In this document: positions 422 through 26,760 of the stretch, one piece after another | Layout: every line of letters starts with the position of its first letter | Numbering within the stretch: position 1 is the first letter of the stretch | Origin: Phoronis australis | Lineage: Eukaryota > Animalia > Phoronida | Assembly (NCBI GenBank): GCA_002633005.1 | Contig: NMRA01000272.1 | Span: 62,001 to 126,000, forward strand | DNA length: 64,000 nucleotides | Direction: 5' to 3' | Translations under genes and position numbers: made by a program | The notes under the pieces: model-generated | Database searches by the model: none | What the model was told of the DNA's origin: nothing | Seen by the model: the letters and a program-made list of their open reading frames with translations, nothing else

Positions 422-772
422 CTGGTCCCCCTCTTGGCCCCCATAGCGTCAAAGTTCATTTGATTGGGCAGTACACACTGGAGACGGGGGAAAGTACGGT
501 GATTGTCACAAATGGCACGGCACTGGACGTCGTCTGCACATCCGGAATTGCCTACGTGGGATCCAACATCAACATAAGGATTATCACGAGACATGGAGTC
601 GCCACTGATCTGAAAACGCGCAATATACGCGCGTTCAAGAACTCATCCACCCAAGCCACTGCATCTTCAATTATCACTTATCGTCATCACGGAGGTACAT
701 TAGAATGCACTGCAACCAACACGCGAGCCAAACGACTACGAGCACTTAAACAGTTTCTCATTGATGTGACAG
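422..772 (+). CDS. Internal coding exon, Ig-like domain, of a predicted Ig/TSP1 single-pass membrane protein
   Basis: Acceptor tgtatttag|CT and donor ACAG|gtagg; 351 nt, open, phase 1-1; ...NGTALDVVC...GGTLECTATN...FLIDVT shows the Ig B- and F-strand cysteine pattern. Confidence 0.8.
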
Positions 773-1394: not shown

Positions 1395-1718
1395 TTGGAC
1401 CATACAACACGGCTATTGAAAGTGCAGACGCCACAACAAAAGTTGTTAATGGTGAGGTAATCGTTGGAAACGGGACACTGGCACAAATTCGTTGCGTTGC
1501 GACGGTTAATCCACTAGCTCTGATGAACTTTTCTTCAAACCTCATCAGCTCCGCATTGCCCATTAAATCCAAAACCCGTGACATATTTACTCGGATTGCG
1601 AAGCAACTATCTTTCACCAGATTCATGGATCATGAAAAGGAGACGTTCGTTTGTTCTGCAACCAATACACGCAATCCATCGCTGGTACAATCCGTCTCTG
1701 CCAACTTGAGAACTGTAG
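1395..1718 (+). CDS. Internal coding exon, Ig-like (C2/CD80-like) domain
   Basis: Acceptor ttttctcag|TT and donor GTAG|gtaag; 324 nt, phase 1-1; GPYNTAI...NGTLAQIRCVATVNP...LSFTRFMDHEKETFVCSATN. Confidence 0.85.
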
Positions 1719-3313: not shown

Positions 3314-3502
3314 TTCATGGAAAGTGGGCAGCATGGTTGGGCTGGGGAGAGTGCAGTAAAACTTGCGGCGTTGGAATTCGCATACAATTACGTACGTGCA
3401 CAAACCCTCCACCCTCACCACAAGGAGGCATGTTTTGCATTGGATCCAATCAGATGTTTCACACGTGTGCGAGTGAACGACGATGCGACTATTATTACAA
3501 AA
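3314..3502 (+). CDS. Internal coding exon, thrombospondin type-1 (TSP1) repeat
   Basis: Acceptor ttttgaag|TT and donor AAAA|gtaag; 189 nt, phase 1-1; VHGKWAAWLGWGECSKTCGVGIRIQLRTCTNPPP...C has the WxxWxxW, CSxTCG and RxC TSP1 signature. Confidence 0.9.
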
Positions 3503-4429
3503 GTAAGGTTTTTGAATTTCTCTTTGGAACGTAGGTAACAATATCTTGAGTTGTAAAAGTAGATGTAGGTAACGCTGGTGAATGTTAGACAAATGGTAAG
3601 ATCTTATTTGAAAGAAGTAACAGCCGCGTCAATTAGCAATTTTGCGACTTAATCCTACTGCGAGTTATGCATCACGGGGACGTCCCCGTAGATCATTTGC
3701 CGATCTTTTAACAGCCCACGATTTTTCATGTATCTTAAAAACTGACAAAAACATAACAGCAGGCGGCGGGCCGTAACTCCAGCTTTTTCACCCTGTGACC
3801 ATGTCAGACTGGAAACTTATGTCTCCCTAGATATATCTTCAAGTATTTGTTATTCCAAAAGTACAATCTAAAGTTCTCATTTCGGTAAATATACGTGTAG
3901 CTTTGTACTTTCCTAATAAAGTAATGTTTAATAAGAGGTGGCGCTATATGTCTCTTCCTTAACCAATCACCAGCTCAGAAACTGATCAAGTGCACAAGGT
4001 TATAAGGGGGGCTCAGAACATTTGTCACAGGGGTTTGCCTATCAGAACAAACCTCAATACACTCGTCACACTTTCTTCACTCTGTCAAAAACTGCATGCA
4101 AAGAAAGAAAAGTTTTGAGTTATTTCACATCGCAGGCCCTACAGATGAGCACAGAAACTTTAGTCATTCTTGTATTTTGGCCTTTTCATTCGTACTGAAA
4201 CCAAGCTAGACAAAGAAACCCGACAAAAAACACAAAATTGGCACTTTTCACGACAAAACGACCACTTCCCTGCCGATGCTCGACTAAAGCCAGTATCATT
4301 TTTTAAAACAAAGTTCCTACCGATTACAAAAATGTGGCCCGAAAGTACTGTCAACCAACTGTTTTTTTGGTCTAAGCGTCTCATAGTTTCATGCTGGGCA
4401 GTCTAACTGGGGGGGGGCTTTGTATTAGA

Positions 4430-6665
4430 GGGTTCTGCAGTGCGTGTAGTCATGGAGTGCAGGCAGCCTTAATATTTATGTATGTGATCTGTTTACTCAG
4501 TGCGGGTCTCTCGACAAGTCCCAGACGCATACTATAGAGTCAAGTCACTTTATTGAAATGTACTCATCCTTAATTTTCGTTCTACTTGTTTTTATATGAG
4601 AACCGTATGGGCAATGTTTCTAAAAGTTTTATTATAGTCTCATTATCAAAAATACCATGAGGATCAGTTTTCATTCGTTTTCTATCCTGCGTTCCATCAT
4701 ATTTCACTTTGATGTTGTACTCTGTGAAATCTATGATGTGCTTGTGGATGTGTTTGTATTGGTTTTGTGTTGTTTTGTAAGTGTGTGTGTGGTGTGAATG
4801 GGTCAGGATTGTACCACTATTATTTGACTGTAATTTGCATAACCATTATAATGGCAGGTGAACTTAAAGTAACCTCACTGCATTGCAGAGGGCTGAGTCT
4901 TCGTGAAAGACGAAAAGATGTTCTCAGTTATTTAGGAGAAAAACAGTATTCGATTTATTGCTTACAGAACACACACTTTACTAAGAGAGAAGAAAATATT
5001 AGATCATTGTGGGGATATGAATGTATTTTCAATTCAAATATCTCAAACTACCATGGAGTGGCGATCCTTTTTAAGAACACTTTTGAGTACAAATTACACA
5101 ACATTATTCATGACTACAATGGTAATAAACTAATTTTGGATATTACTATTAATGAGACAAGAATAACGTTAATTAATACGCATTGTCCAAATAGGGACTC
5201 GCCGTCTTTTTTGAAAGAATAAAACAAGATATTCAAGATATAAGAAATCACTCTGTTATTTGGGCAAGCGATTTTAATCTAATTTGCTCTCGATCAGTCT
5301 AAGGACACTCTTAATTATCGGCAGATTAATAACCCGAAGTCACGGATTAAGTTGATGGAGATTTGTACAGAATTGTCTATTGATGTGTGGAGGGAACTAA
5401 ATCCCAATAGTAAAGAATACATTTGGGGGGCTGGAAGTAAACAATCCAGACTAGATATTCTTCTAATTTCTGAAAATCTTTTAGCCGATATTGAAGACTC
5501 CATAATTGAATTCGGGTTACCGGTCCGACCATTCAGTTGTAACGGTATGGGTCCAGAAGGAGGAAATCATTTTGGAAGTTTAGTGCTGCAGTAAAGGATA
5601 CTATTAAAATCGTTAAACAACAGTATATGACGGACTATATTCAGACAATTGATAGTACTAGTAATTCAGATTTACAATTATCTATAAATGATCAACATTT
5701 TCTTGAAACGTTGTTGATAGAGAGTCGCGGCAAAACAATTTCCTTTGCTACTTACTTAAAAAAAATTGATAGAACTGGACAGCAACTTATCGAAGAAATA
5801 GATTTGTTGGAAAAAAGTCTAAGCCTTGACAGGGAACTACTAGAACAAAACAAATAATCGACTTGCCGAGCTAAGGCAAAATCAGTTAAGAGGTCTTATG
5901 ATTAGGTTGAGAGCAAGATGGATTGGAGAGGATGAAAAACCTTCCAAATATTTTCTTTCCTTGGAAAATAGGCATTACAAAAGTAAGTGCATTCCTTTTT
6001 GTGGAAATCTGACAACACTAAAACCAATAGTGAAGAAGAGGTTATTCAGGAAACCAAAACTTTTTATGAAAATTAATACAAATATAGACATTCCAGCAAT
6101 ACTGCTTTAGAGACTTTTCTTGATAAGGTTTGTGCCTCCAAACTGAATGACACAGAAAAATTAGAAGGTCTTCTTACATATGAAGAAGTCACACAATGCT
6201 TGAAAAAATGAAAAACAACAAGAGCCCAGGCTCTGATGGTTTTTCAGTGGAATTTTTAAAATTTTGTGGGCTGACATTGTTCGCTCACTTAATACTCGTT
6301 TTACAGTTGGCCAGTTATCATCAACACAAAAAGAGGGAGTGATTACCTGCATCCCTAAGGGAGCAAATAAAAGTAAACATTAAAACTGGAGACCCATATC
6401 CTTACTCAATGTGACATATAAATTGACTTCTTTGGCTGTGGCTGAACGGCTAAAATCCGTTTAGGGAAAACTAATCCGTAAGGACAACACAGGTTTCGTT
6501 TCTGGAAGAAGTATGAACGAAAATATCCGCGTGCTATATGCTTTTTAAAATGTTTTATGCCCAGGCAGCTAACAAACATGGATTGCTTTTACTGATTGAT
6601 TTTGATAAGGCATTTGATTCATTGGCGTGGAATTTTATTTAAAAAGTTTATCTTTCCTTAATTTT
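4430..6665 (+). mobile_element. Tx1/L1-clade non-LTR retrotransposon A, 5' part (APE endonuclease, linker, start of RT), decayed
   Basis: ORF2 start MAGELKVTSLHCRGL at 4851; YCLQNTH, GVAILF, SRLDILLIS, RARWIGEDEKPSKYFLSLE, WRPISLLN, DFDKAFDS motifs broken by stops and frameshifts; left boundary approximate. Confidence 0.85.
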
Positions 6666-9600
6666 TTTTTAGTAGAGACATTCATTAACTCAACCAACCA
6701 GTAAATAATAACTTTTGAATGTGAAGTTGGTAAAATCCATCTTGATGATAAAGGAAACCTTATTGTCATCGAATTACTTATTGAAAATCGAGTCTCAATT
6801 ACGTTAGCTAATATTTATGGTCCCAACAAGGATGACCCTGAATTTTTTAGAACCCTGCTTCAAGTAGTCTCTGACTACAATTCAGAGTTCATAATCATTT
6901 GCGGCGACTGGAATTTGGTTCAGGATTTCAATCTTGACTGTTTAGGATACAAACTCCAAAACAATCCGGCTGCAAGAAAACAAGTTATCAGTCTGATGTC
7001 GCAGTTAAATTTGGTCGACCCGTGGCGGTTACGTAACCCAAATACAACAAGCTATACTTGGTTCAGAATTAACCCTTGTAAGCAAGCCCGTCTGGACTAA
7101 TTTTCTAGTGTCCGACGAGTTTTCCTCTTGGATAGAAAATATTGAAACGTCCCCAGGTCATAGAACCGACCACCATTGTGTCGTGACTACTATTCAGGAC
7201 TCTAAATTTGTTAGAGGTAAAGGTCTATGGCGACTTAACAAATCCTTATTACGTGATGTAGAATATATCAGTAATGTGAAAGACATCATAGTTAAAACCG
7301 AGAAGGAATATTTATCTCCTAATAATGTCTCCAATTTTTCAGACGGTCAGTCCACTACAGACGACTCTCTTCTTCTTGAGATGATTCTACTGAATAATAG
7401 AAATTAAACTTTGTCTTATTCAGCTTTCAATAAAAAAGAAAAGCATCGACATCAAAAGAATTTAGAGGAGCAATTAAGTCTTTTTAGAGAAATGATGTGC
7501 AGCAGTAATTCTTCTCTGGTCCTTGAAATTTATTCAGATTTGCAGAAAGATTACGAATATATTAGAAAGGACAAAGTGAAAGGCGTGATGCTGAGATCTC
7601 GGGCAAAATGGATCGAGGATGGTGAAAAACCGCCCAAATATTTTAGTAACTTAGAAAAACGCAATTACTTGAACAAGAATGCCCACAAACTTATAGACGA
7701 GACTAGACAAAGCTTGATGAACCAAAAAGCTATACTGTGTGCAATCAAAAAATTCTATGCAACTTTACATGCACCCAAAGAAAATGACTCTCTCAAATAT
7801 GAGTTGGAGAACTTGGTGACCCCTGGAAATATGTCGAAACTGGACGCCGACCTGAAAGAAAAACTAGAAGGACCAATAACATATACTGAAGCTGCGACTG
7901 TCCTTAAATGTATGAAAAATGACAAAACTCCGGGGACTGATGGTTTTCCTGTAGAGTTTTACAAATTTTTTTGGAAAGAATTGTCGCCATTTTTGATTAA
8001 ATCTTTTAATTACACTTTTCGAAGCGGCCGTCTCCCTACCACTATGCGTCAAGGTGTCATTACTTTGATTCCTAAGGGCAAGAAGCCACGTGAATGCATT
8101 AAAAAATGGAGACCAATGTCCTTACTAAATTCAAGTTATAAACTATTATCAGCATGTATTGCACAAAGGATAAAATCTCTTTTAAATAAGTTAATTCATC
8201 CTAATCAAACTGGGTTTCTCCCACGTCGCTTTATGGGGGAGAACACCAGACTGATTTATGACATCTTACAATATACTCAAGTTAAGGATATTCCCGGACT
8301 TCTGGTATTAACTGATTTTGAAAAAGCCTTTGATTCTGTGTCCTGGAGATTTCTTAAGAAAGTTCTACACTATTTCAATAATGGTGACGATATTATTCGT
8401 TGGTTCGCAATACTCAATGAAAGTATCCAACTTTCGGTCATTCAGTATGACTTTACGTCCAACTACTTTAACATTTGCCGAGGTTGCAGACAAGGTGATC
8501 CCCTTTCACCTGATCTTTTTTGCTGTGTGCCGAAATTATGGCATCTATGTTGAGGCAATGCGAGAATGTTAAAGGCATAAAAATTGGCCTCCTTAGAGTA
8601 TAAATTAATGCAATATGCAGACGACACGGTCCTCTTTCTAGATGGTTCAGAGACCTCTTTAAAATCTTCACTTAATCTTCTTGATCAGTTTGCTAAGTAA
8701 TCTGGATTGACACCCAATATCGATAAAACTTTTTGTATATGGATTGTTTCTAAGATATGTTGTGGTGATAGGCTTTGCTGTGAAAAAGATTTAAAATGGG
8801 AAAGTTCCCAGTTCACATCTCTTGGAATTACTTTCTCTGTCGACTTACAGGACAAGATTCACTTAAACTACAATGTAAAATCAAATGAGGTTAGAAAAGG
8901 CATTGGAAATTGGTCTAAAAGAAATTTGTCTACCTTTGGTAAGATAACGGTTGTCAAATCTTTCTTTTTACCAAAACTGATTCACCTCTTTTACACACTT
9001 CCTCTTGCAAGTGCTACTTTTTAAGGACATTGAAAAAATATACTTTAATTTTATATGGGGTACCTCTTCTGATAGAATATCTAGAAAAACCATGGTGCAG
9101 AAATCTGAAGTTGGAGGTGGGAATATGGTTCATATTGCGTCATTTGTCAAAGCTATTAAACTGACTTGGATTCGAAGATTCTTCAAAAATTATTATAACA
9201 ATGCTTCTCTTTGGCTAAATATTTCATGTGAAATTATTCCTAATATAAAAAATGACTCTTTTCAGTTAGGTTCTTGTTTTTTCCTTGCAGTATCTAACCG
9301 TACTTAGAATATTTTTGGAAGGATATTTTTTATATCTTATACGAATTTATCAATCTTTGTGAGAAAGATGATCCTTTGTACCAACCTTTGTGGTATAACC
9401 CCAAAATTTGTATAGACAGTAATCCAATTTTTGGAACGAGTGGTTTAAAAAGGGTATACGGTAGGTATACGATTTAATTGACCCTGATAAGGGATATATT
9501 TATGATTATCATACCTTTTGTACACGTTTTCAATTTTGTTCTTGTATTACACATTTTCATGGAATTCTAAGTTCAATACTTCGTTCTTGGAATCATCTAA

Positions 9601-10319
9601 GAGATAAGAATTCTATAGTCACTCCACTTTTTCAAGAACATATTTTTCGAATCTCCTCGGAAAATAAAGGAACTGGGAAATTATTCATTTCTAAATTATA
9701 TGTAAAACCTGTCGCAGAATTGAAGTGGGAGAGAGAAATTAACTTATGCGATGATACTCAATCTTGGAAAAAATTCATTCTGTAATTTATCATTGTACTT
9801 CTGATGTCAGACTCGGTTGGTTTCAATTCCGCATCAACCACAGACTTATTGGTACAAACTCTTAGTTAAAGAAAATAGGTGTTAGTGAATCGTCTTTATG
9901 CTCTTTCTGTGAGCAACATGAAGAAACAATTCTACATTTGTATTGGGAATGTTCACTTGTTCAGAAGTTTTTGGGATGTTTAAGAACATGGATGATAAAT
10001 CAGTGCAATTTCCCTCTGCAGTTAAATATGTCTTCCGCCTTGTTTGGAGACCCAGCCTGTAGGTCAGAAGTTGTAGATTTAATTCTTTGCTTAGCGAAAT
10101 TTCATTTATATAGACAAAGACTACAAAAGACTAAGCCCAATTTTCAGTCATCTTTACGTGAGGTATGTGATTACTACAACCTGGAAAAAAATATTTACAA
10201 TGATAAATTGGATCTTGAGAGATTCCAGGCAAGGTGGTCTTTTTTTGCCTAACTAGCTTTTATAGGGTCCGATAATGTTCGTACTTCGTTTGATGTACAC
10301 TAAACTAGATGTCATATTG
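6666..10319 (+). mobile_element. Tx1/L1-clade non-LTR retrotransposon B, 5'-truncated, nested inside element A
   Basis: NIYGPN, GDWN, ARLD, KTPGTDG, WRPMSLLN, DFEKAFDSV, RGCRQGDPLSP, QYADDT and CSFC...HLYWEC zinc knuckle; flanked by direct repeat ttccttaatttt (6654-6665 and 10320-10331). Confidence 0.9.
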
Positions 10320-12310
10320 TTCCTTAATTTTGGTTGGTCTATCAGAAGGCGGGTGAAAGTCTTTTACAGTAATATTAAGTCATGTGTTGTCGTAAATGAT
10401 CACCCATCTTGCTGGTTCAATATTTTGCGTGACTGCAGACAAGGTGACCCTTTGTCTCCCTAAATTTTCATATTGTGCGCGGAGATTTTAACGTATTTAA
10501 TCAATAATAATAAAAATATTGCTGGAGTAGTTACAGGAAATAAGGACTATTCGATTTCACAATATGCGGATGGGTCGAATTTGTCATAGACTAGCACATT
10601 GACTGTACTACATTTGTTTGCTAGTGTCTTCGGTCTCCAAGTGAATGTGGATAAAACAAGAGCCATACGGTTTGGAAATGAAACTGACAGTGATGACGTG
10701 ATTCGTACAAACGAGTCTGTCTTGGACAAAAAATCTTTTAGATTTTTGGGGGTGGCTTTTGACACTCAATTGGATAGTATGACGCATAAGAACTTCACTC
10801 CAAGATTAAGTTTTTATTAAAAAGATAGAGTCGACGAAATTTAACGCCGTTTGGTATAGTAACTGTAATGGAAACATTAGCTGTTTCTAAACTTAATTTT
10901 TTGTTGTGCAAGTTTACCAAATCTACCAGTAAAAGTCTTGGATGAATTGAATACGACATTTTTTGGATTTGTATGGCAGGCTCGTAATGATAAAATTAAA
11001 CGAACAACGACCTGTTTAGAACTTGATCAAGGGGGACCTCAAAGGGTTAATATGCATACGTTCAGCAAAGCTTTGAAACTCACCATGGCCCGTAGATATC
11101 TTGAAAGCCCTGTGTCTAAAAGTGGTGAATTACTGTACTCAATCTATCTGTTCTTAAAGAATTGTTCTTCATTTGGAGATGACTTTATTAATTCGAATTT
11201 ATCTCTAATATGTAATTCCTACTTGCGCGAAGTATTTGGAAGTATGACATCTTTCTACAAGAAAATAATTTTTGCAAGTAAGGAGGACTTTTTGAATCAG
11301 CCTTTGTGGTTTAATAGTAACTTGGCGATCGGAAAAACAATTAGTGTTTTTATAAGCCTTGGTTTATAAAAGGCTTAAGATTTATTAGAGATATGTATAC
11401 CTCTGATGATGATTTAGTTAGTTTGAACCATAAGAAAAATATGTTCGATGTAAAAACCAACTTCGTATAATATAATGGTGTTGTTTCCGTTCAAAGAAGA
11501 TTTCAAAAAAGTCTATTTCAAAGTAAATTTAAAAGTGTTAATGTCTACGCTCCTTGCATACCTTTAGCAATCACTCACTTACGGGAAGATTTGAAAGGTT
11601 GTAGACATATTTGTTCAGTCTTTAATGACGTTAAGAAACCTTTCAAGTCAGAGTGTAAATGGGAAATAGAGTTAGGAGATAGTTTAGATTGGAAGAAAAT
11701 ATATGCATTGCCTTATGAAATTGTAAAGGATCCCAACATTAGATGGTTCCAATACTACACTGGATTGCAACAAATACCTTTTTTGTCAAAATCCGTGTTC
11801 GGGACTCTAATTCATGTTCCTTTTGTAATAAAGCTCCAGATACTCTGTCATACCTTTTTTGGGAATGTCGCATTGTACAAGACTTCTGGAAGGAATTCGG
11901 ACAGTTAATGCAAAAGTGTCGCTTTCAGCTTCCCAACGGTCTCTCTTACGATCGAGTTATTCTTGGACTATACGAGACGCAAGATTTTCTTTTCAAAATT
12001 TGGTTCTAATAGCCAAATAGTACATTTACGAGGAGAGATGTCAGAAAAATAAACATAATTTCCACAGGCTTATCACGTATACTTATGAGTACTCTAATGC
12101 TGAAAAATTAATTGCATACAAAAACTTTGTACTTCTCTGCGAATTGGGAAAATTTCGTTGTTCACGTTAAGTACACGTAGAAGTTATTTGCTTGAAACGA
12201 GATACGAGATTGGTCTTTCCTGAGGTGTGTATGCGTGAATGGATGGATGTACTTATTGGTTTGTTTGTTTTTGTAATGTTTTATAAATGATAATAAATTC
12301 TAAAAAATAG
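10320..12310 (+). mobile_element. Tx1/L1-clade element A, 3' part (RT, zinc knuckle, 3' UTR), decayed
   Basis: RT resumes where A was interrupted: FLNFGWSIRR...CRQGDPLSP, QYADG, FRFLGV, CSFCNKAPDTLSYLFWEC; ends in AATAAA and an A-rich tail near 12292-12310. Confidence 0.85.
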
Positions 12311-13120
12311 TTGTTAATAAATTACGAGCTTTTCCAGAAAATCCCAGTGCAAAAACCCGCCGAGTGACGCGTCGCTGCCTCGAGATCGCCGATAGGTTAA
12401 TTAGAATTCATGAGAAAAAATATAGTTTCGACTCAGCTGATTACACGAAGTCCTCCTTAAGTTTTCAAAATAGCGTCCCTAACATTTTTAAGTTCCCGTG
12501 GAGTCGGGATTTACTCCATATTAAATCCAAAATCTGCGCTAGATCGTACATGTACTCTGCAACTCGAGAAAATTTTCTGGAGGAACACACATGTTGTTGT
12601 CACGTGATGTTTGTTTGAAGTTCGTCTACGTGTGTGAGTGAATGAGCTCGTGCGTGTCGTCAGAGTTCATTTGCCAGAGTGAACACGATGTAACGATCGG
12701 GAGATTCGGGGGTGTAAGGGTACGGAAGTTTTCACTATCACTGCGTCATTTTTGACTTTAAAAACACCAATTACGATTAATTTAACAATTCCTCATAAAA
12801 ATAACGCAAACGTTTTTACGGTATTAGTTACTTTCGGAAATAAGTGCCAGTATTTATTTCTTGCCAATGCTATGCTTCCCGTATCCTGAATAGATACGCG
12901 AACTTCTGCATTCATTTTGTTGCCACGTGAGAAATAGTAGCAATCGAAGTGGAGCACTGCATGGTCACTTGTCGCATGCGCACTACAGTCGGTTGTCAAT
13001 GGGCAAGAAAATAGTTCTCATTCAATTATTTAAAATGCGAAATAAGTAACCGTTTTTGGCCCTGTTACACAAAAAGTAACAGATCAAGTTTTAGGTGTCT
13101 TCAGAATAAAATTTTAACTC

Positions 13121-13255
13121 CATGTAGAAGTTGTTTACTTTATACGATATACGAGAATGGTCTCTCCTGAGGTGTGCATGCGTGAATGAATTGATGATTG
13201 TACTTGTTTGTTTGTTTTTGTACTGTTTTATAATTTATAATAAATACCTGAAAAT
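13121..13255 (+). repeat. Second copy of the Tx1 element A 3' UTR/tail
   Basis: gtagaagtt...atacgagaatggtctctcctgaggtgtgcatgcgtgaatg...ataataaat closely matches 12175-12305. Confidence 0.75.
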
Positions 13256-13789
13256 GTTTTTTGCAAACCTGGCTAGTCTAAGGTCTACCTGAAATCGCGG
13301 CCAATTTCTCAGTCGCTACCCAGCAATGCACAATTATTGCAACAGGAGCCACCATCTTGAAGAAGAGTGCAGCTACAACCGAGCGAGCGGTCTCTTTCAT
13401 TCTCAACATGCTTACAAATACAAACAAAAAACATTCACTTTGTCTATGTGTAATACCTAACTAAAAAAAACCCCAAGCCTGGCCTACACCTGGCTTTTAA
13501 TATGTTGGGAGTACAAATTGGCCGCGGCAGCAACCTATTTGTTCAGTGCCACCTAACCATTCACACAGCGATGGTATGAGAAGATGGGGGAAATCCTTAG
13601 CTTTTCAAATAGGTTGATTTCATTTACAAAAATTGCAAGCACCAGGGCATATTTTTAAAATTTTAACCTTAAATTATGCTACTTGCTCATGGTTTCAAAG
13701 TTATATCAGTGTTTTCACTTTCTTTTAATTGAAACTTTCTGCTGATAAATTAATAGACGTTATGAAACTGATTTGGCTTAATATTTAAT

Positions 13790-13860
13790 GATGTATGTGT
13801 GTGTTTGTGTGCGAGCGTGTATGTACGTGTGTGTGCGTGTGCTTGTGTGTGTGTGTGTGA
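13790..13860. repeat. Imperfect (GT)n microsatellite
   Basis: Direct reading: gtgtgtgtttgtgtgcgagcgtgt...gtgtgtgtga. Confidence 0.85.
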
Positions 13861-14269
13861 ATGTAATTTTTTTTTCTGCACACAATGCTCACTTTTTGGC
13901 CACAATAGAAATATGCAACCACAGTGTCATCATTATCACTGAACAAATTATAATCCATTCTTACATTTTTGTCAATGAAAATATACATTTTTTTCATTGC
14001 TACACAAATAAATGACAATACAATAAATGCAATTATTAAGCCCAGAAAACGAATCATTATATCCAGGCTTTTAACTGTAATACAACGGCATACGTAAGCA
14101 AAACATAATATTGAGCAAAAATACCAAGGTAAAGGAAACAAAAACAAGAACAAAATAATACGGCAATAAAGAAGAACATATAAACAAGATAATAATATAC
14201 AGAAACATAAAACAAAACCAAACAAAAAGATCGAGCTAACAAAGTGTGGTTATATTTACGTTATCATAA

Positions 14270-17200
14270 AAATGTCTGTATAGTTAAAATAAGAAAGAAT
14301 GAAGGAGTTATAAACCAACTCTAAGTGGCAACTGGAAATGTATTTCAAAAAGATTTCTGAATGGGTTGAGAATTGGTTTTAATTAATTGAACACAATGAA
14401 GATTTATAGTGAGTTGAGGATGAAGCAGAACATTCAAATTATGCTTAACCGACACACTTTGAGTAATAATAGAGTCATTAAAATACAGTCGTTGGAGTCT
14501 GTCGATAATGTGTAGAGATTTTTGCGAACACGTTATGTCGTACCTTTTGAACGCTTTGAACTCTATACGCTATTTTGTCGCCCAATCAAACAGTAAGAAA
14601 GTCCCTTTGTAAAAGACTTACATTTTCTGATTTGTATCATCAGCATATAGAAACGTCTTAGAATACTGTACATCAGGTAGGTTGTTAATAGATAGCAGGA
14701 AATCAGCGGTCCCAAAACACTGCCTTGTGGTACACCAGCATTGACGTACCCAAAGGGGCTATTCGGAGAATTCTCCTCGCGGTGTCGCTGCTGTACTAGT
14801 GGTGATTGAATTGCGCATGCGTCGCTGTCTGCATGTAAACAGCTGGTAAAAAGACGGATTGTTATCAAAATACGTCGTCGCGCTAAGCCTTATTATTGCT
14901 ATTTTCCCTGGTGCAAGTCTTCGACAGGTGATCACAAATTCCCAAAAGACCTAAGGTTGCTATATTCGTGTAGAATTGCGGTCAAAAGGGTCAACCAACT
15001 GACAAAAAGTGTGTGGATGCCAAAGACCCATTGGGAGACTACATAACGTTACTTGGTAAGTTTTTAGCAATCAAGTTTCTATCGACATCGTTCGGTGATG
15101 TTATCACCACCAGTTACCCCAATGAATAACGGGTTTATTGAATGGAGCTAAGTGTTTCTTTTCGGCTAGCACTACATATTCACAGATTGTCCTGGGTGGG
15201 AATGGGCCCAATATAAGAGGTGTATGGTACGTGAGGAAGTCATGGGTGACTTTTCATAGCAGTTTCTCTTCAGAGCTATACTATGTCCAATAAAATTCCC
15301 TAGATGAGTGAGTTTCCTTATTTTATAGCGGACACCATCCCCAGGACTACCAGATTAGTTACCGAATTAACATGAATAAGCTATTCAGTAAACGCTGCAT
15401 TGGAATAAATATATACACCTAGAATGAGTTTTACTTGAGGTCAGAAGCACATTTTAGGTGTCGTGAAAAATGCCCATTGTTAAATCACTTTTAGCCTGTT
15501 TCACACATTTTAATTCAGATCTTAAATGAGACTTGGGTACAAAGATTATTAGTTTCTACATACACTAAACATGAAGATGAAACGTCAAGTATGTTCTGTC
15601 TTACTAAAGTAGTTTTGAATTGTGTTTTCTTTTATAATTTGCTAGTATTTCTCTGACTATTCTGTTACAGGTAAGAAAAAACGACTGAAACCAGCCGGCT
15701 GACCGTCTATTTTACCTTTTGACAAAGTGAAAAGCAATCCTTCAGCAATAACCTGAGAGAATTGAACTTAATTCAGAAATTCAGGATTTGATATGCCTGA
15801 TTATGGACTCCGTTGCGTGGGAAAATTACAATTCTTTTTAACAATGTTGTTTCTTTGTATGTATGTGGTTGTTCAGTTTGCCATTTTGTTTTTTAAATAC
15901 ACTAAAAATTATTTATTCTCGAATCTTGTGAACAGCAGATTCTTATCCAGCAAGCTACAATTGAAAACATTCTTTTCTTGCATGGGGAACTTTTGTTGTG
16001 GATGAGTTAACACAAAACTTAAAATTGTTCAAAGGCCTTCTTAAGAAAGCCCTACACACACAAACAAATCAAATGAAAGTATCTCAATTAACAGGCATCA
16101 GTAGAATAAACATGGAATAATCGTTAAACTAATCAAAATCCTTACCTTTGTATAAGGTCGTGCTTACTTCCTCTCAAAGAAGCACCCTTTTCATGCAACC
16201 TCAGATTCATTTGGCACGGCAACAAGCCATTTCACCATGTATTTAAAGGGCTCGCGAAGTCGAGGCTCTTAATCTATCACCACTAGTACATGGGCGCCCT
16301 CTAGTTAATGTAATTTTTCCGAATAGCCCCATTGGCGATTCATCAGAAACAACTCCATCCACACGAAATCCATAGGTGGTTCTATTTAAAAGATACGACT
16401 GAATAAAACTATGCACTTATTCCATCCTTACGAAGTTTTAATAACAGATTATGTGGCATCATATCAAACGCAGAAGCTAGACCCAGAAAAAGAGCACGAA
16501 CATTATTCCGCTGAGTAGAGACTGTGAATAATCTCGATCAATTGAGACGTGGTGATTTTCCCTGACACCAGTTTTAGCAGAATATAACAAATTGTGAGTT
16601 ATCAAGTAGTCATATATAATGGAAATTTAGTTTTTTTTTAAATCGTTTTGAGAGGAAATAGAATAGAGTAATGGGGCGATAATTGGACACTTCGGTTGTT
16701 GAATCTTTTTATGCACAGGCATCACCAATCCACGTTTCCACTTTGATGGGAAAGTACCAAAATAAAAATCTTATTAAGAAATTTGGTTACTGCACAGTAA
16801 GAGAATTTTCAAGTAATTTGAATATGTTACTCATTATCTGTTGAAAAGTCACTTTTCGAAGTACCAATATTTTAAAGAGGTCTTTCGACCTCATCCGCAA
16901 TGGCTTGAATTAAATATACTGGACGGTGTCGCCTACTATCCATATTTGGAAAGTCACGTGCAAAGTTGCCTCAGTGTGTCTTTTATTCGTGAAACAATTC
17001 AAAAATAAATTTGATTTATCTAATTTTGAAGAAGCATAATCACCAGTGTTATTCTGTTTAAGACAAGGAAATGTACCATGAGTGGACTCACCAAAAGATT
17101 CGTGTATATAAACACGGATACCTCAGCCTTCATTACTGTGATACGCAATAGAGTATTCAGGAATCACACAATCAGATTTAATTTGATCATGCAGCAACTA

Positions 17201-17720
17201 ACCTGCCTCACAAATGGCGACTATTTTATAATTATAGTTATTAGACTTCACAATGTTTATGTTAGTGAATAAGATACTGAACACACCATTGGGTGCGAAG
17301 GGACCAGGATTCGATTTAACATCACCACAGTAGAGGTCAAATTAGAAATTCATTGGGCAGAAAACAGGAACCCCGTAGGTTTCTATGAAAGTAGTCATCC
17401 ACTATCAACTATTTTGCAACCTGTTTCACCTACACAAATATTGCATAACGACTCAAGGCTGCAAGTACTAATAACAAGCTGAACACCTACAGGTATAACA
17501 AAACAAAATACGAAAGCGATATTGACAATACCGTGAAACTAAGTGATGGGTATAACATAGAATAATACTTAAATAGAACAAAACAAATAATACACAGCAG
17601 GGCAAGGGTGACGCAAAAGAAAGAACACATATACTAAGTATCGAGTGACGGACAGGCTTCCAACCAGGTAACCCTGATGCATGAAAACTAGGCAATATAA
17701 ACCAGAGAAGCTGTCGCACA
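14270..17720 (-). mobile_element. Decayed, internally deleted CR1/L2-type LINE, split by a TIR element
   Basis: Minus-strand motifs in order: GDVKSNPGP (17326-17300), APE start IVAICE (~17220), VMPVHK...VSNYRPITL (~16700), LASAFD...LLLKL (~16460), SYLLNR, then after the insertion GVPQGSVLGP (~14730) and YADDT (~14640). Outer boundaries approximate. Confidence 0.8.
14755..16330. mobile_element. Non-autonomous TIR DNA element (GGGGCTATTCGG termini) inserted in the CR1/L2 RT
   Basis: TIRs ggggctattcgga / tccgaatagcccc plus inverted subterminal tgtactagtggtgat; an inverted partial homologue lies at ~40720-41888; superfamily uncertain. Confidence 0.8.
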
Positions 17721-19612
17721 CAACATTTTTATATGCAATTATTTTTTTAGCATCCTAGTACTCGTAAGTATGTGCAAGAAATTTGTGAATATTAGGTATA
17801 TTTTTGTGACATCTAGTAAATCTACTGTTTGGCTAGCAGTAGCAAAATGTTAAATAGAAAATGTGTCTCGTAAAACCCAATAATAACACATTTGTAAGAG
17901 AGACAGTTTGAAGTTGAATGAGGGACGTTTGAAGTAGTTTTCTGAATTCCTTCCAAAAATCTTGTACAGGGCGACAATCCCAAAAAACGTCTGGCAGCGT
18001 CTCTGGAGCTTTATTACAAAAGGAGCATTAATTAGAATCCCGAACTTTGATTTTGGCTATAAAAGCATTTGTTGCAATAATTCCCGGTATTTGATATACA
18101 GGTTAGTTTCAGCAGACTTCATTAACAAGAAAGAAGAGTGTGCCACCAACGAATCACACAGACTATTAGAGGATATTGGAACGGTAAATAAGCATAAACA
18201 AATGATATGATCAACGCGATAGGTAATGCCTGTTGATTGTTAATCAAATTATTTTTCCCATTCTTTACTGAATGCGGTAAGACAGGCACATTGCACAATA
18301 GAATACCAGGAGAACGATGGGTAGAGTTAATACAAACTGGTGACTGAACACATGAAATGTGTTGGGTGGTCTTCAACAGGCGTGGGCCACTAGTGAAATG
18401 GTACGGCTCACGGAGATCATCTAACAAACGTACAATTTAAGTTCACTTTAGTAGGCGAAGAGATACATGTCACATTGCAATTGACAAATCTAACGATAAG
18501 AACAGATTAAGAGGACTGAACTTCACAGACATATGTGGGACAGTTCAGTTATAACAGTTCAGTTATAACGAGTGATCAACAAGTAAACACATAAATAAAA
18601 CGAGGAGCAAAATATAACCATGGGTATACTCATATTACTACGTTTACAAGACTATGCATATGAAGTCTGTGGATCATATCAGCACAAGTGGGATCAGACA
18701 TTACTTTATGGGTGTCTATCCAAGTTTTCTTTATGTGGAAAATCAGAAGCTTACGTTCGCCAGAAACTATGTATTCTAAAGAAATTTGCCGTTTATCATT
18801 TTTAAAGAAAATGCACATGTGATGAGCAATTGGCGTATGACGAATATTCAACAAAGGCGCTTAATATATGGAAACAAATTTCGCATTGGATTAATAATTC
18901 TGACGCAGTCAAAAGGGTCACGGGGGGACGGTGCCCCCATTCAATTACTTAGAATCTCTCCATTGGTATAGTTTCAAGGAATGTTCTAAACCCCCCCTAC
19001 CCCCTCGACCCACGACCCTGTCGACCTACTACCCCCTCGGCCCACGGCCCCACAACCCCTCGACCCTGTCTACAAAAGTTCGACTCGATCTGAATCTAGA
19101 ACAAGCGCTGACTTGCTGATCAACGAGTCGGACCTTCACTGCTTTTTTTGCAATCAAGAGAGTAGATTAGGCAACTTTGAAAGGCAAAAACAGAAAAAAA
19201 TAACCCGACCAAATCAAATCAAAGACTTACCAACGTTACAAATATCGTTCGCGGCAAAGTGTAATCGTCTCGGCTGCTCTTCAGTCAATGGCATATTCAA
19301 GCTCTTTTGGGAGAGAGTGAGGAACCGACGAACATGTAATTTCTTCATTAAATACAAACTGCTAGCTTAAAAGTATCTCAACATTACATAAAGCTCAGGT
19401 TGTTACTGTTTCAACGCCCTCAAAGGTCCTGTTTTGCGCGTACGGGCTCCTGCACCTTCGCACTTGATGCACACCAAGAAAATGCGAGACAACCGGGGTC
19501 TAAAGAAGACAAAAGTCGAAATACCACTTTGGAGCTGTCGCGTTGTTGAAAATGTTACATTTGTTTTGATCCAATGATTGATTTTACTTAATTGGAATAT
19601 TTTCATTTTCAG

Positions 19613-20901
19613 TGGCAGATTATTTATGGAAGCACCTGGTTGAAAAAGGAGAGGCTAATTTCACTGTGATGTTTGCCCTTACTGCCTGCACAACCTCGTT
19701 TGTTATAATGTACATATGGTACATGCGCAATGCATACTTAAAGAAAACAAAAAAACTGGAGAAAGAAGCAAAGCAACAATTCCGTTCACTTGTCAAAAAA
19801 CTAAGATCTCGTCTAGACGAGAATAATCAAAATGACCAGTTCTTCGATGACTTACAAATGGACAAAGAAACTGCTGACATAGGTAGATTTTTTACCCTAT
19901 GTGACCATATGGTAGGAAAAGACAAACAGCATCTTCGTCAGAACGCAGCGTCAAGAACGAAAGAAGCAGTTCTGCTTATTAAGCACGAACTAAACAGAAT
20001 TGCACTCTTTCAAAGCCACGCGACTAGAGACAAGGAAGCCATTGAAAGAGCTTTGCAAAACTACCAAGCTACGGCTGTGTACCACGTTCAAACAGAAGTT
20101 CTCAAAGATAAAACATTGGTAGAAAAATCACGTCAACTTATTCTGGCATTGACCCTCAAATCCACAATAGAGAAAATGGAGCATGATGAAGATCTTGATG
20201 GAATGGAACGACTGCTCTCCGTAGCGGAAACAAAAGGTTTTTTTGATCTTCTGGAAGAATTTGAAATGTTAAGGGATAAATTAACAGACCTAAAAACTTT
20301 GGCTCAGTATAAGCAAATGCTCCTGAAAATGGGGAGAAAGAGGATTGCCGAATTGCGGGCATATAAAGACCCCCCAATACCTGTGCATGAAACGATGATA
20401 GCAACTTTGCTGATACTTGGATTTCGAGAAGAACTTACTCGTGATTGGACAAGCTGCTTGCGAATTTGTCAGGGAAAAAAAGGTCTCCACTGGAATTTGA
20501 TGAACTTCAAGGTGGACAACTTGCATCCGTCTATCGCTGCAAGAGCCATCGAAATCCTTGATATTTACCGTTTGGAGGACCTGAAGGCAGTAAGTAAAAC
20601 TGCGTATCACTTCTATGTGTGGGCACATGCTATAGCCTGTCATGTTCTTCATAAAACCGAAGATGTTGTCCCAGCTGGCCGTGCTCAACAAAGACAATTG
20701 TTGGGAATAGAAAAAGTACCAGCGCAAGTGAGCAGTTGCACGGAAAGGAAACAGAACAATACACTTTCCCGTTGTGGGATTGAGAATCAAATCACTCCCA
20801 GTCTATTCTTTAGCGACAAAAGTAGAAGTGTTGCAACGGTGTACAAGGCAAGTATGGGCGATAGCGTTTCGAGCGTTCTACCTCGTGCAATGGATTTATA
20901 G
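19613..20901 (+). CDS. Large terminal coding exon: TM helix, helical cytoplasmic region, dynein-stalk microtubule-binding-domain-like module
   Basis: Intact ~430-codon frame starting right after acceptor tttcattttcag|TG (phase 1); hydrophobic FTVMFALTACTTSFVIMYIWYM followed by basic RNAYLKKTKK; C-terminal IAELRAYKDPPIPVHETMIATLLILG...DW...LMNFKVDNL...VSKTAYHFYVWAHAI resembles the dynein stalk head; possible AATAAA at 21530. Confidence 0.85.
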
Positions 20902-22569
20902 TGAAACAAGGTGACTTTGAGGAAATACTTTAGAAAGACATGGCACTTCCGGGACTTTCATATGCAGAGCAGTTGTCGTTTTCAAAATGTATTGTACGCG
21001 TGTCTAATGTCGGCTCATAGATAACGGGTAAGGTAGGAACAGTATGGCAGAAGTCATTACGAGTCACTTCGGAGCACCGTTAGAGGCTTTATGGTGCGAG
21101 TACCACGAAGCTACCATCAGATGAAAAAGAATGAAAGCGAGGGATAAATGGATCCAATTCGGGCCCTGCTGTCGGTTTTCAAAACAGAATTGCGGGACAG
21201 TTGGTGTTAATATCTTTGATACGTGGGTTGTATTACGTAGACACAAAAGTGTAGCCAGTGAAATTCGTGTGATCAAATCACGTGCTGATTTCATGAATGT
21301 GATGTAATCACGATTTCCTTGAGTATACGGAAGTAAGATATGAGGTGTTAGGTAATGCGATCTACTTCAGCGCTATAAAGTGGCAAGCGCTGGTTTTCAT
21401 CATGACAACAAAAAATCAACCATACTCTTGCATTCTAATTTCGTCTATATTAATTCACAAAAATAACATTTAACTTTACTTTTTTCACTTGCTGGGTACA
21501 ATATGTTACTATCATTTCCACTGCAACATAATAAAATAGTTACCAACTAGCAACACTATTTGAATGATGTCTGTTGTAATTCTGTCTTTCCAAAAAGGAT
21601 TAAGATTTTAAACACTGCTCATGGCTTTTCTAACACGGCTCAACATTTCCAAACATGGTACAAAGTATTCAAAACATAGTGCGGCACTGAGTCGGTAAGG
21701 AGAACAATGGTCATATCGAGTACTAACCAATTCAGCAAGTCTCCTATCATGTCGACGAGTTTGATATAAGCAACGCTAGTGTCTAGCTGGAAAGACAGGA
21801 CTTCGCGAAATATCACATTGTATTTTCAGCAGCTGGTCATAGCTCTATCTGAACCTTGTTAGCTGACTTTCCAGGAACCCGTTTCATGAACACAAAGTCC
21901 GTTTTTTGGTTTTCGATTTTGACTTAAACAGCCATAGGTGAGCATACAGACTATGATTTCGCTGTCTGTTACGATTCCCAAAACTAAGCCAGGCGGTTTG
22001 CGAAATACGTTTTCAAAAATACCTTAATCTTGAAACTGGAGATTTTTTACAATTGTTGGGATACCTTTGGGATCTCGTTTACATGAGAAGACGTTAGTAT
22101 GAATGGAAAATATTCCATATGTGCAGGTTAGTCACACTACGTTGTTTCTACGGTGCCTTGCCGGTTGTCGAATCGAAATCAGACGATCTCCAATTTGACA
22201 TTGTTTAGGGACATTACAATGTGGCAATATGAAGAAAATCTGTCCCTCGGCAGCTTACAGTGATGATAGTCGTAAATTTTGATCATTTAGACCAACAGTC
22301 CATTGTGACCAAAGTTTCAATCTAAACCTGTTCAGTATCAAGCCTACTTTCAGTCTGTTTTAATTTTGATCTTAAGAAATGCCGTGAAACGTGGTTCAGA
22401 CATATTGGTCTTAAGTTATCAGGATTTCGGTCCACATCAAGACAGAAAAACTCTCACGAAACGGGCTCCAGGTCCATTACCGGACAGGAAATGAAAACCG
22501 TCATTTTTGTGCAGTTTATGTAACAGTAATATCCTACACATTTTGCATTGCACGTAATATTTCCAGACT

Positions 22570-23449: not shown

Positions 23450-25117
23450 CCTAATCAAAAGCAGTAGAAAACTCGATAAAAAACGTATTAAAGTAGTACA
23501 AGATGCACAGTTTTGCCAACAGAACTTGTTTAAGGTTTGGTTTACTGGCTACGCCGTAAACCTTTGTTTTCCGACGCGGTTTGCTGTTTTTGGTATGCAC
23601 AAAAATAACTCTGAAAACCGCGCAGTAACCGCACATAAAACTTCCTCGCGATTCTCGTTTTTGGTAAAAGCCCACCCTACCAAAGAATCGAAACCTCACG
23701 CACCTATTCGGGCCAATTTCTGCTATACTTATGCTGGCACAGTGTCCTAATTATAGATGAATTCAATATTAAGGCAAGCAGTTTGAAAGTCGCCAATTTC
23801 AGTCCATGATATATCCATTTGTTTTAGCACGTGCTTTACTGCTGTGAAGCCATCGCTCCATGCAAAAGCACGGCCATATAACAGAGATCCAGATAAGCAG
23901 GCTTTCTGACGAAAGCGTAACTTGAGGAAATCTTTTGTTCATGTACAAGGTGCCGTAGAATGGGCCTAGTTTAAAAAATATTGACTATGTGTTATTTTAG
24001 CGCGACATCAAATTTCACATTGACGTCATAAGAGACGATGAGCAACCTAAGTGTGGACTTGTGCCTGGTTGCGTGAAACAATCCTAAATAGGGACTCAAC
24101 AAAGTTTCTTAAATCTTTTGCATTCTCGTTTCGTTATATACTGGCAGGCGAAATGTTTTTCTATCAATTTATCATTATTATGAGGGCTTCCGTGACTAAC
24201 GACATTTTTAATAATGTACCTAAAAACTGAGCCCTTAATTCAATCAAAATAATTCAGGGATTCAGTCTTTAAATTAGGGGCGGTGCGTGAAAAGACCGGT
24301 ATATATTTTCAATAATATTGGGAATTAAGCGTAGATTTCATACTCAATTTGTACCAAAGCCAAGAACTGGCTTAGTTTGTGATACTCAAACAGCATATAA
24401 AGGACAATCAATGTTTTCACAAACCCACAATTAGTCAGTAGGTTTAGGGAACATAGTCGAGTTCCAAGTTGGGACTTTTTCATGCAGTGAGGAAACGGTG
24501 TCAGTGGCTTATGGCTTTAGATTGTTCTCATCAACTTACCATCTTTAACATTCCCAATATCCAACGACTTACCGCAATAAATCAAGTTAATTTTGCTGAA
24601 GGTTTACATAAATAATTGTTGGGTTTAATCATTCATTTTTCCTCGTAGTCACAAATCAAATTACATCCTGTTTCTTCCTACAATCGTTTTCTTCTAATAT
24701 AACCACACAGCACCAAGAACTCATCTGAGTTTAAAAGACAATGGAGTAAACAGGTGGCACGAGTCCCATTGCCTTGTGTCAGAAAAACGGAACACCGACA
24801 ATTGACAGTAATATTGTTGTTATCATTTTTCTTTAGTAGATGGGTTTGACAGTCCCCGTCTTATTCGCTTCATGTGGTTCAGTGGGATTCGCTTAGGGGT
24901 TTTCCAGTCAACTTTGTGCTTTCACTGATGTTGTTTAGTCTCGTGACTCGCCCCTCATGATATATTCCTCGATGTAGACCGCTTTGTGTGGGCTATGGGT
25001 TATGGTTGGAGAAAATCGAATAAAGTAGATCACGGATCTACCGAACACGTTGCAGTGGCAACTTCGGAGGTCAATCGCTAAGAGCCATAGACATTCTTCC
25101 TGTTATTGCTCACTTAA

Positions 25118-26760
25118 AGGAGAATGCTATCCGATTTAATTAGTCTTTTTGTCGTCTTAATCGGTCTATATCCACATCGCCTCGCATGCGGTCGACCTTA
25201 CCTTGCCAAGAGGTGTCGTGTTAACCTGTGAGGAAGGTGAGAAACGACGCTAGCGACGTCATTGGTTCATATGAAGAGTGAATGCCGCTATGTTGCAGTG
25301 CGTCGTTCCCGCTTGTCCGAACTAAGCAGCTGCGAGGAAAGCGGGTATATCGTTTTTTTACCTTCTCGAGAGTCCAAAATGCTTAGGAAGTGGCTCATGG
25401 TAGTGAAGAATGAAATGTACGTTGTAAATAGTAAGAATGAGATCGTGAAACATCTCCTTGTCTGTGGCCTGCAGAAGTCGACAGTGCCTGACGAATGCCG
25501 GCTTACCAAATAACTTCATACGTTCCGTTGTCTGAGCTTGTTCACGGCGCCTCTCTAGTATTTCTTCATCACTGTATTCCTGTTCGAATTGATACCCTGT
25601 AAAACTTAACGATCCACCTGCGAAGTCGGGACTGATCGAGCTCTAGCTCGTCCTAAGTCGGGATTGCGAGTTGCCATGTTTGTATATTACTGAGCGTTCT
25701 GTTTCAAAATGAATTATTCTCACCCTAACCAATACTTATATAAAACTCAAACAAAGTCTGTCTCATTAGATGCCTATTTGTAATGCCTTTGGAGTGTTCG
25801 TGAGTGCAAATGATTTGAGAAGCCAGCAATGAATAAATCTATGCGTTACCAGCTTTAGGTGCAATAAAACTAATTGACGGGACACCGAGGCCGTGTGAGC
25901 TCATTTAGTGTTTGCTGGCAGAAACTGTTGTGAAACAACTCGATTTCCATCCCACGACCAGGTGTTAGATGAATCTTTATTTACTTTTACATTACTCAAA
26001 TAATGATTGTCAATGTATAACTTCTGCCCTGACGGTGCTGTGGCCAAAGTGGAACCTGAATTCGCGGCCCCCGGCCCGACGGGTAAGTGGATTTGCAGTT
26101 TCGTGGCTAATTCACCAACATAATCACCGTGCACATTACTTTGGCTCACTTGTGTGGTATTTTTTTACTATAAGTTTAGTTTCCACTGAACTTTGACTGG
26201 TTTTTGTTCGTGATGTCTGATCAGTTTCCGAGCCACTGGCCGGGATAACGGCGGAGTCAATCCGGCCGGCCGCGACGGGCCTGATCGGGCTCCGAGCTAC
26301 TGGCCAGGATAACGAGCGTTTTGTGTTTAGAACTCAATAATCACAAGTCTAAACAACACAGATCTAGTTTCTCCTGTCTGTATCTCACAGAAAATATTTC
26401 GAAACTATCTCCGAACAGACCCCAAACTCCTGCTACGGACCTTATTGGCCTGCCGAACTTTGTAGGCTACGGTGTGTCCAAATACCAATAAATCCGTAAG
26501 AGCGAAATAAAACAACACGTTTTTATATGAACTCGGTGTATGAATTATTTGTGTTAAACGATGACTTCAAGCGATAAGCTGACACCAGTAACCCGTGTTG
26601 TGAACTGCTGAACAGACTGCGTGTGAAAACGATGACGTCATTGGATAATTTCGACACCTCCGTCAGGTGTCAGGTAACGCAACCGTACGCGTCGTTATGG
26701 AGTAGAACTACTCGACCTAAATTGATACAAATTAGGTTGTTTTTTGGGTGGCATGCTCCT
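25118..26760 (+). mobile_element. Kolobok-like non-autonomous DNA transposon with THAP-domain remnant (copy 1)
   Basis: TTAA|AGGAGAATGC ... GCATGCTCCT|TTAA; remnant MPLCC...KMLRKWLMVVKNE...KHLLVCG at ~25282-25470. Confidence 0.8.

Follow-up and report, generated by a model that had tools for sequence, protein, structure and literature searches.

A predicted Ig/TSP1 receptor of Phoronis australis with a motor-less dynein microtubule-binding domain homologue in its tail

Introduction

The link between receptors at the cell surface and microtubules is usually made by adaptors or cortical motors. The guidance receptor UNC5 has the order Ig-Ig-TSP1-TSP1-membrane helix, and its tail carries ZU5, UPA and death domains. 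Dynein's microtubule-binding domain (MTBD), which forms the core of Pfam family MT (PF12777) and is known from structures such as 3err, 5ayh, 6rzb and 6kjn, is a six-helix head set between the stubs of the stalk helices CC1 and CC2. According to the accessible part of one study, yeast dynein is linked to tubulin by six salt bridges, in which K3117, E3122 and R3124 of helix H1, R3152 and R3159 of H3, and R3201 of H6 take part, and the basic contacts lost from H3 of Dictyostelium dynein are replaced by others (PMC7042235).

This article describes a known domain, the dynein MTBD, in an architecture for which no description was found in the literature. Neither a membrane receptor nor a hillarin/KY protein with a motor-less dynein MTBD is reported in the sources covered, among them the accessible parts of PMC6629372, PMC12423330 and PMC13443885, with subscription journals scarcely represented.

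The Gene and Its Expression

The stretch of DNA analyzed here (the window) comprises 64,000 nt of Phoronis australis, positions 62,001-126,000 of the forward strand of contig NMRA01000272.1 in assembly GCA_002633005.1. It has the features of animal genomic DNA, namely retroelement debris, spliceosomal introns and a scarcity of long open reading frames. An MTBD-like peptide lies in frame at 20317-20640 (+), as residues 236-343 of a 429-aa open frame (19612-20901) that starts at a splice acceptor, and the 64-kb window holds no second copy of the module. An earlier note on this DNA had taken that frame alone; the RNA joints show it to be not a whole gene but the last exon of a spliced one, with the following parts.

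422..772, + strand: Ig-like domain exon, with AG/GT signals, open frame, two cysteines and phase 1 at both ends
1395..1718, + strand: second Ig-like domain exon (weak assignment), with stranded RNA depth in runs X1 and X2
3314..3502, + strand: TSP1 (thrombospondin type 1) exon, PF00090 at E 2.7e-10, 40.7 bits (cut-off 21.6)
3503..19612, + strand: intron of 16,110 nt, GT..AG, with broken LINE-type retroelements inside
19613..20901, + strand: last coding exon, 429 codons and stop, encoding membrane helix, spacer, MTBD-like module and tail
19660..19725, + strand: predicted single membrane helix (hydropathy), then a basic stretch
19726..20118, + strand: juxtamembrane spacer, probably helical, without assignment in Pfam or the atlas
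20119..20280, + strand: short helical bundle that runs into the helix equivalent to CC1 and stands where dynein has its long stalk (model helices 2-22, 26-38 and 46-81, pLDDT 94)
20281..20670, + strand: dynein MTBD homologue with CC1 stub, H1-H6 and CC2 stub (profiles and model)
20671..20706, + strand: PA..RQ..LLG motif common to a subgroup of mainly KY/hillarin-type relatives (alignment to Macrostomum P0002)
20707..20898, + strand: serine-rich, non-conserved C-terminal tail (family alignment mostly gaps beyond residue 353)
20902..21535, + strand: probable 3' UTR, with stranded depth on to 21300, the limit of the mapped stretch, and the first AATAAA/ATTAAA at 21530

Four RNA runs labelled as the same species were mapped over 1380-21300, three of them as raw reads (X1-X3) and one as contigs (X4). 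Reads support both joints that flank the TSP1 exon, each with GT..AG signals: 1718 to 3314 by eight reads (five in X1, three in X2) and 3502 to 19613 by 11 (one in X1, ten in X2). The joint from 772 to 1395 is predicted from matching splice signals and phase. The gene is expressed in two of the three raw-read runs (X1 and X2), its exons being covered on one strand, with a stranded depth over the last exon of 3-14 in these two and of 0 in X3. Expression seems to depend on the sample, since X3 has near-zero depth on the exons of the gene and X4 has no contigs there. Joined together, the four exons encode 716 residues in one open frame with zero internal stops, and the gene starts upstream of exon 422..772, probably outside the window, within which no 5' end was found. 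The large intron carries a reverse transcriptase match (RVT_1, E 8e-18 at 7411-8550); several broken LINE-type elements, consisting of endonuclease and reverse transcriptase pieces, lie at 4737-11908 (+) on the strand of the gene.

The first Ig-like exon matches Pfam Ig_2 at E 0.012, which falls below the cut-off, and resembles the second (E 9e-5, 26% identity), for which the Pfam scan gave no match; the PDB matches of both exons were unconvincing. The membrane helix, about 16 residues into the last exon, is the most hydrophobic 19-mer of the 716 aa, and its Kyte-Doolittle value of 1.82 is moderate and lies below the cut-off of 2.0 applied to relatives. Six of the 15 residues on its C-terminal side are K or R, and five of the six N-glycosylation sequons of the spliced part lie on its N-terminal side. 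We infer a type I membrane protein whose module would be cytoplasmic. The architecture as a whole is very probably that of a receptor, in the order Ig-like, Ig-like, TSP1, predicted membrane helix, helical spacer and MTBD. Nothing else at the locus is as unusual as this predicted single-pass host, which the earlier note had missed. The note had also described the roughly 200 aa before the module as helical; the segment includes the predicted membrane helix as well, and the TSP1 and Ig-like domains lie on exons farther upstream. Membrane helix and module share one intronless exon. The order of Ig-like, Ig-like, TSP1 and membrane helix is that of Ig/TSP1 adhesion and guidance receptors such as UNC5; unlike in UNC5, no ZU5, UPA or death domain was found by Pfam in the protein, and orthology to UNC5-type receptors is not claimed because the Ig assignment is weak.

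The atlas search gave no usable match for residues 40-225. The spacer scores 5.7 bits against the helical-repeat profile of the family described below, a score that 15 of 500 shuffles reach, and may hold a worn copy of that repeat. At the other end of the exon, the C-terminal tail is rich in serine (11 of 64 residues); it is not of the low complexity that the note had proposed, its 3.97 bits comparing with 4.11 in the core.

Homology and Fold of the Module

That the module is a homologue of the dynein MTBD is virtually certain. Its own sequence gives little on its own account: the best PDB match in a single-sequence search is a dynein heavy chain at a weak E of 0.019, and the top atlas matches are unnamed, mostly mollusc clusters, with an MT cluster at 0.82 that serves as a lead only. 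The Pfam check proposed at the outset had a divided outcome, as PF12777 leaves the window's protein unmatched and, with E-values no higher than 0.01, matches 19 of 58 members of the family. A profile built from 58 short members reaches dynein in the PDB with a best E of 6e-17; judged by name or by size, the best 60 of its 77 matches at E 1 or better are all chains or constructs of dynein, and DNAH6 and other axonemal heavy chains are among the top sequence matches. Three rows of this alignment came to lie close to a dynein fragment in the tree, which gives weight to a control profile of 17 rows with the dynein-like rows left out; besides the protein of the window, it contains two annelid proteins and members with an MG start or a membrane helix. 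It still finds dynein at E 5e-13, and by name or by size its 41 PDB matches are without exception chains of dynein or MTBD constructs, one of them a 4,583-aa chain labelled radial spoke protein. The two profiles, together with the predicted fold, bear out the original suggestion of a dynein stalk-head-like module.

AlphaFold2 models have pLDDT values of 94 and 93. Superposition on solved structures, the second check proposed, placed the 130-residue core on the mouse dynein MTBD (3err_B) with Z 16.4 and an rmsd of 2.0 over 126 residues, and the top five of 48,161 chains compared with the core are dynein MTBDs. Foldseek also ranks dyneins first, with weak E-values (best 8e-4 and 1.1e-3). Identity to dynein MTBDs is 17-20%, and the model is not an entirely separate line of evidence from the sequences, because the network has seen dynein structures. 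The structural domain, at about 20281-20670, is slightly wider than the 20317-20640 given before, which is in frame. In the comparison of affinity states, 3err scores Z 16.4 against 8.4 for 3j1t, and the yeast high-affinity form has TMq 0.69 against 0.58 for the low-affinity form; a high- or low-affinity conformation is not called because these signals are mixed.

Like the dynein MTBD, the module has a six-helix head between CC1 and CC2 stubs and the E.(R/K)S..PP, LG...W, F/Y-D and S...W pattern; by sequence, its closest counterpart is a head of the DNAH6 type. The E (at 20350) and the W (at 20446) are invariant in the family; P, G, S and the second W are nearly so. Unlike dynein, the visible part of the protein is without AAA ring, linker and tail, and the head is located at the end of what is predicted to be a membrane protein, in its tail, preceded by a short helical bundle, which is aligned in many family members, instead of the long stalk with its CC1 proline. 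The stretch 17-26 residues ahead of the invariant E is free of proline in the window's protein, and a CC1-kink proline occurs in 12 of 132 domains from the best 150 of 253 relatives. No P-loop (GxxxxGK[ST]) is found in the 716-aa spliced part, and the stop follows 77 codons after the module. The expected lack of a motor is thus confirmed, the only GxxxxGK[ST] in six frames of the whole window being at 13573, inside the intron. The gene product is not a dynein heavy chain. The "MTBD-like" motif of TTLL11 was considered as a relative and ruled out, as it is the helix-loop-helix of TTLL6/7 according to the accessible part of the source (PMC12366701).

A Motor-less Family in Invertebrates

A full HMMER scan found 253 relatives or clusters at E 0.001 or better, the best 150 of which were used. 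Word-indexed homologue searches had matched 1 of 6,727, 0 of 7,992 and 0 of 5,958 candidates, blanks that say little because the full scan found 253. None of the best 150 has a GxxxxGK[ST] motif. In 96 of the 101 among them that start with Met and have at least 250 aa, no more than 100 residues separate the module from the C-terminus. The KY-type Ig-like domain PF23265 is present in 40 of the 133 relatives scanned with Pfam (best 150 of 253, 17 short ones unscanned), which substantiates the link to hillarin/KY proteins that the note had put forward; other relatives among the 150 carry CLCA with VWA, VWA, CD20-like, EF-hand, CARD or LRR domains, as anticipated for a mobile C-terminal module reused across architectures. 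A helical repeat of about 60 residues often precedes the module, with at least one copy at 12 bits in 110 of the best 150, a threshold below which the window's protein falls.

Organisms could be named for 22 of the 30 relatives looked up, and all are animals: sponge, orthonectid, annelids, molluscs, amphioxus, tunicate and an insect (a dynein fragment). No vertebrate was among these 30, a small sample. A Haliotis relative of 356 aa is automatically annotated as "dynein 2 heavy chain-like."

Predicted membrane anchors, either an MG start or a hydrophobic helix before the module, occur in 43 of the 101 Met-starting relatives of at least 250 aa (best 150 of 253). In the same set of 150, MG starts are found in 32 of 143 Met-starting relatives, with S, T, A or C at position 6 in 29 of the 32 and Cys at positions 3-5 in 17, motifs that we read as presumable myristoylation and palmitoylation sites. 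The background frequency of G after internal M is 96 of 1811 (5.3%), and shared ancestry inflates the MG count, as KY proteins make up 21 of the 32 and the rows cannot be treated as independent. A hydrophobic helix of at least 2.0 precedes the module in 14 of the best 150, including two marginal KY proteins. The core has a positive net charge in 72% of 136 domains from the best 150, with a family median of +3 and +4 in the window's protein, and conserved features peculiar to the family are a G-K/R-T-G-K/R insert and a basic pair in H4. Eight small proteins with MGC, MGS or MGG starts (P0016, P0029, P0030, P0039, P0048, P0049, P0069 and P0114) form a well-supported clade (97); they consist of little beyond helical repeats and the module, two named members are molluscs, and by sequence they may be the simplest lipid-anchored form of the family.

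The tree is a quick one of 136 rows (from the best 150 of 253) and 125 columns, with many forks open. It separates a group of 122 rows, including the window's protein, from 14 rows (SH-aLRT 96) that comprise P0121, an annotated dynein stalk fragment, and tandem-MTBD proteins. Five proteins (P0063, P0067, P0082, P0103 and P0137) have two or more stand-alone MTBDs without a P-loop; they are closer to dynein than to the animal family and are probably protist. The window's module has a long branch (0.88-1.06) and lies near KY-type and short annelid proteins, a position without starred support. The 13 rows with a membrane helix, of which P0124 was labelled by eye, need three changes on the tree; independent origins are not claimed because a single clade is not rejected (p-AU 0.089, 51 rows of 136).

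Two kinds of relatives can be set beside the window's protein. On the one hand, the hillarin/KY-like transglutaminase-fold proteins (PF01841 and PF23265) have the same C-terminal module, one of them, P0002 of the flatworm Macrostomum, with 38% identity over 141 aa, and a subgroup shares the PA..RQ..LLG pattern, found in 18 of the best 150 of 253 relatives. Unlike the window's protein, they are without an ectodomain, and 21 of 40 (best 150 of 253) have an MG start as predicted lipid anchor; PF01841 and PF23265 were not found in the four visible exons of the window's gene. On the other hand, two amphioxus CLCA-like proteins (P0055 and P0064), a mucin-like protein (P0124) and a tunicate VWA protein (P0123) are likewise single-pass, with ectodomain, hydrophobic helix, charged spacer, helical repeats and a C-terminal MTBD-like module; unlike the window's protein, they have other ectodomains, and their modules lie elsewhere in the tree. 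The Ig/TSP1 architecture itself was found in none of the relatives searched. In two KY-type proteins, P0094 of amphioxus and P0146, a CARD domain stands just before the module, and a KY-type protein of the pearl oyster (P0003) has three near-identical module copies.

Tubulin-contact Residues

The positions of the six yeast salt bridges were mapped through the alignment of the profile to dynein, and family counts refer to 122 domains from the best 150 of 253 relatives. In the window's protein these positions are occupied by R, E, R, T, Q and A, so that three of six are kept: the H1 contacts K3117, E3122 and R3124 correspond to R, E and R, and the H3 and H6 contacts R3152, R3159 and R3201 to T, Q and A, with basic residues adjoining. 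Across the best 150 of 253, the H1 glutamate is present in 122 of 122 domains and is followed two places on (R3124) by K or R in 99 of 122; this glutamate could have a structural role as well. K or R stands at the K3117 position in 27 of these 122 domains, at R3152 in 44 and at R3159 in 20, and the R3201 position has K or R in 13 and D or E in 48. At neighboring positions of the same 122 domains, K or R is found nine and 12 residues after the invariant W (80 and 87 domains) and one residue before R3201 (62 domains). Basic residues retained by most relatives are missing from the window's copy at these two positions after the W and in the RR of H4, where they have been lost.

Non-dynein Structures with a Similar Fold

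Four non-dynein chains stand above the background (at most 6.7) in the comparison with the core, namely 9fqr_Xl (Z 11.0), 9ya2_L (10.5), 9e5c_2e (8.3) and 7jrj_I (7.9, over 74 residues), values that call for caution with helical folds as they lie under 13; a fifth, 7jtk_C, has TMq 0.72. All five come from cilia or microtubule assemblies and have a similar fold; unlike the window's protein, to which they show 11-14% identity, some have long inserts and none is a membrane receptor. Chain 9fqr_Xl may be EFCAB5, and the radial-spoke chains 7jrj_I and 7jtk_C may be RSP2. EFCAB5 is placed in the RS3 stalk by a study whose accessible text, supplementary files included, does not mention an MTBD (PMC11779644).

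Chain 9ya2_L, of which 162 residues numbered up to 1457 are modelled, sits in a microtubule-lattice structure and is, from its size and numbering, probably ICMAP2 of Toxoplasma. As described in the accessible part of its source, ICMAP2 has 1,678 aa, a tenth of them resolved, and forms a dimer between protofilaments with an 8-nm repeat; an MTBD is not mentioned there (PMC12819142). By analogy, 9ya2_L supports lattice binding by a motor-less form of the fold, perhaps in another mode, and would, if it is ICMAP2, provide a solved motor-less MTBD-like domain on a microtubule. The radial-spoke chains would point against tubulin binding, contact with tubulin not being expected there.

Possible Functions of the Module

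The reading that we prefer, and to which we give an even chance of being correct, is that the module acts as a passive membrane-to-microtubule tether of fixed affinity in a predicted single-pass cell-surface protein. With type I topology, the Ig-like and TSP1 domains would lie outside the cell and the module in the cytoplasm, where it would bind the tubulin lattice mainly through H1. Affinity and helix register would be fixed, without ATP-driven release, because the long stalk and the CC1 proline, the carriers of the register shift, are missing. Many weak binders clustered in the membrane could together provide a useful grip, so that adhesion outside would position microtubules inside. A tether is favored because reads join the TSP1 and Ig-like exons to the module in one open frame, because profiles and fold indicate homology to the dynein MTBD, because the three H1 salt-bridge residues are kept, because the core is positively charged (+4) and the family rich in predicted membrane anchors, and because a non-dynein chain of the same fold, 9ya2_L, sits in a microtubule lattice. 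It is weakened by the changed H3 and H6 positions, the lost basic residues and the long branch, by the match of the fold to radial-spoke chains, and by a membrane helix of moderate hydrophobicity (1.82) in an Ig/TSP1 architecture that no relative shares. If true, such a receptor, with a dynein-derived grip of its own, would link adhesion directly to the microtubule cytoskeleton.

Only tentatively do we extend this reading to a family of membrane-to-microtubule tethers, derived from a captured dynein stalk head and reaching from sponges to amphioxus and tunicates, which in Phoronis would be wired to an adhesion-type ectodomain with neither adaptor nor motor. Its members are natural motor-free MTBDs, presumably of fixed helix register, in which the role of the head without the stalk switch becomes testable. 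In many invertebrate proteins of the hillarin/KY-like and CLCA-like kinds, tubulin binding becomes a candidate role for a C-terminus that carries no annotation.

A somewhat unlikely alternative is that the MTBD fold was kept while the module became a protein-interaction domain, one that recruits something other than tubulin from the cytoplasm and serves in signalling or as a scaffold at the membrane. The family-wide replacement of the H6 arginine, often by an acidic residue, would suit such a change, as would the likeness to chains in radial-spoke entries, and the conserved insert could form a new surface with the H4 basic pair. A dynein MTBD can bind light chain 1, a partner other than tubulin, according to the title of PDB 6l4p. 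Weighing on the other side, the invariant H1 glutamate and the next K/R are tubulin contacts in dynein, and new basic residues in or beside H3 and H6 could replace the lost ones in the manner of Dictyostelium. Should the module not bind tubulin, a motor part would have been turned into a general interaction domain.

An improbable reading is that microtubule binding holds for the family, but that the window's copy, taken over by a receptor gene, is weakened and kept only as a folded spacer. The long branch, the loss of basic residues that relatives keep, the single intronless exon shared with the membrane helix and the failure to find a close relative all agree with decay. Decay is, however, hard to reconcile with a frame that stays open through all 429 codons although the sequence has changed about once per site, with the retention of all fold-defining residues and all three H1 contacts, with a net charge of +4 that exceeds the family median of +3, or with a gene that is spliced and expressed in two of three raw-read runs.

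We regard as highly doubtful an action of the module on dynein traffic, whether as a membrane-near roadblock on the footprint of dynein and kinesin or as a sink for an MTBD-binding regulator. Fold and H1 contacts are as in dynein, and MTBD-binding regulators exist (She1 and LC1, from sources accessible in part), but an identity of 17-20% to dynein MTBDs makes a shared specific regulator unlikely. Finally, the segment might be a dynein heavy-chain gene that has broken down, or a helical sequence that resembles dynein by chance, as the single sequence could suggest by missing Pfam MT and reaching dynein only at E 0.019. Such a reading has next to no chance of being right, being contradicted by the RNA splicing of the segment to TSP1, by both profiles and the fold match, by a window without AAA motifs, by 253 relatives with a P-loop in none of the best 150, and by a family of 122 rows apart from the annotated dynein stalk fragment (SH-aLRT 96, quick tree).

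Other Features of the Window

Several repeats lie elsewhere in the window. An inverted pair at 25114-25626 and 27747-28232, 78% alike over 521 nt and with a THAP-like piece in one arm (E 7.5e-5), is a probable DNA transposon remnant. The tandem duplicate at 58931-60103 and 60105-61240, 94% alike and flanking an N at 60104, is likely a haplotype or assembly overlap. A 1.1-kb repeat is present in inverted copies (82%) at 14752-15792 and 40801-41891, the first of which collects many RNA reads on both strands.
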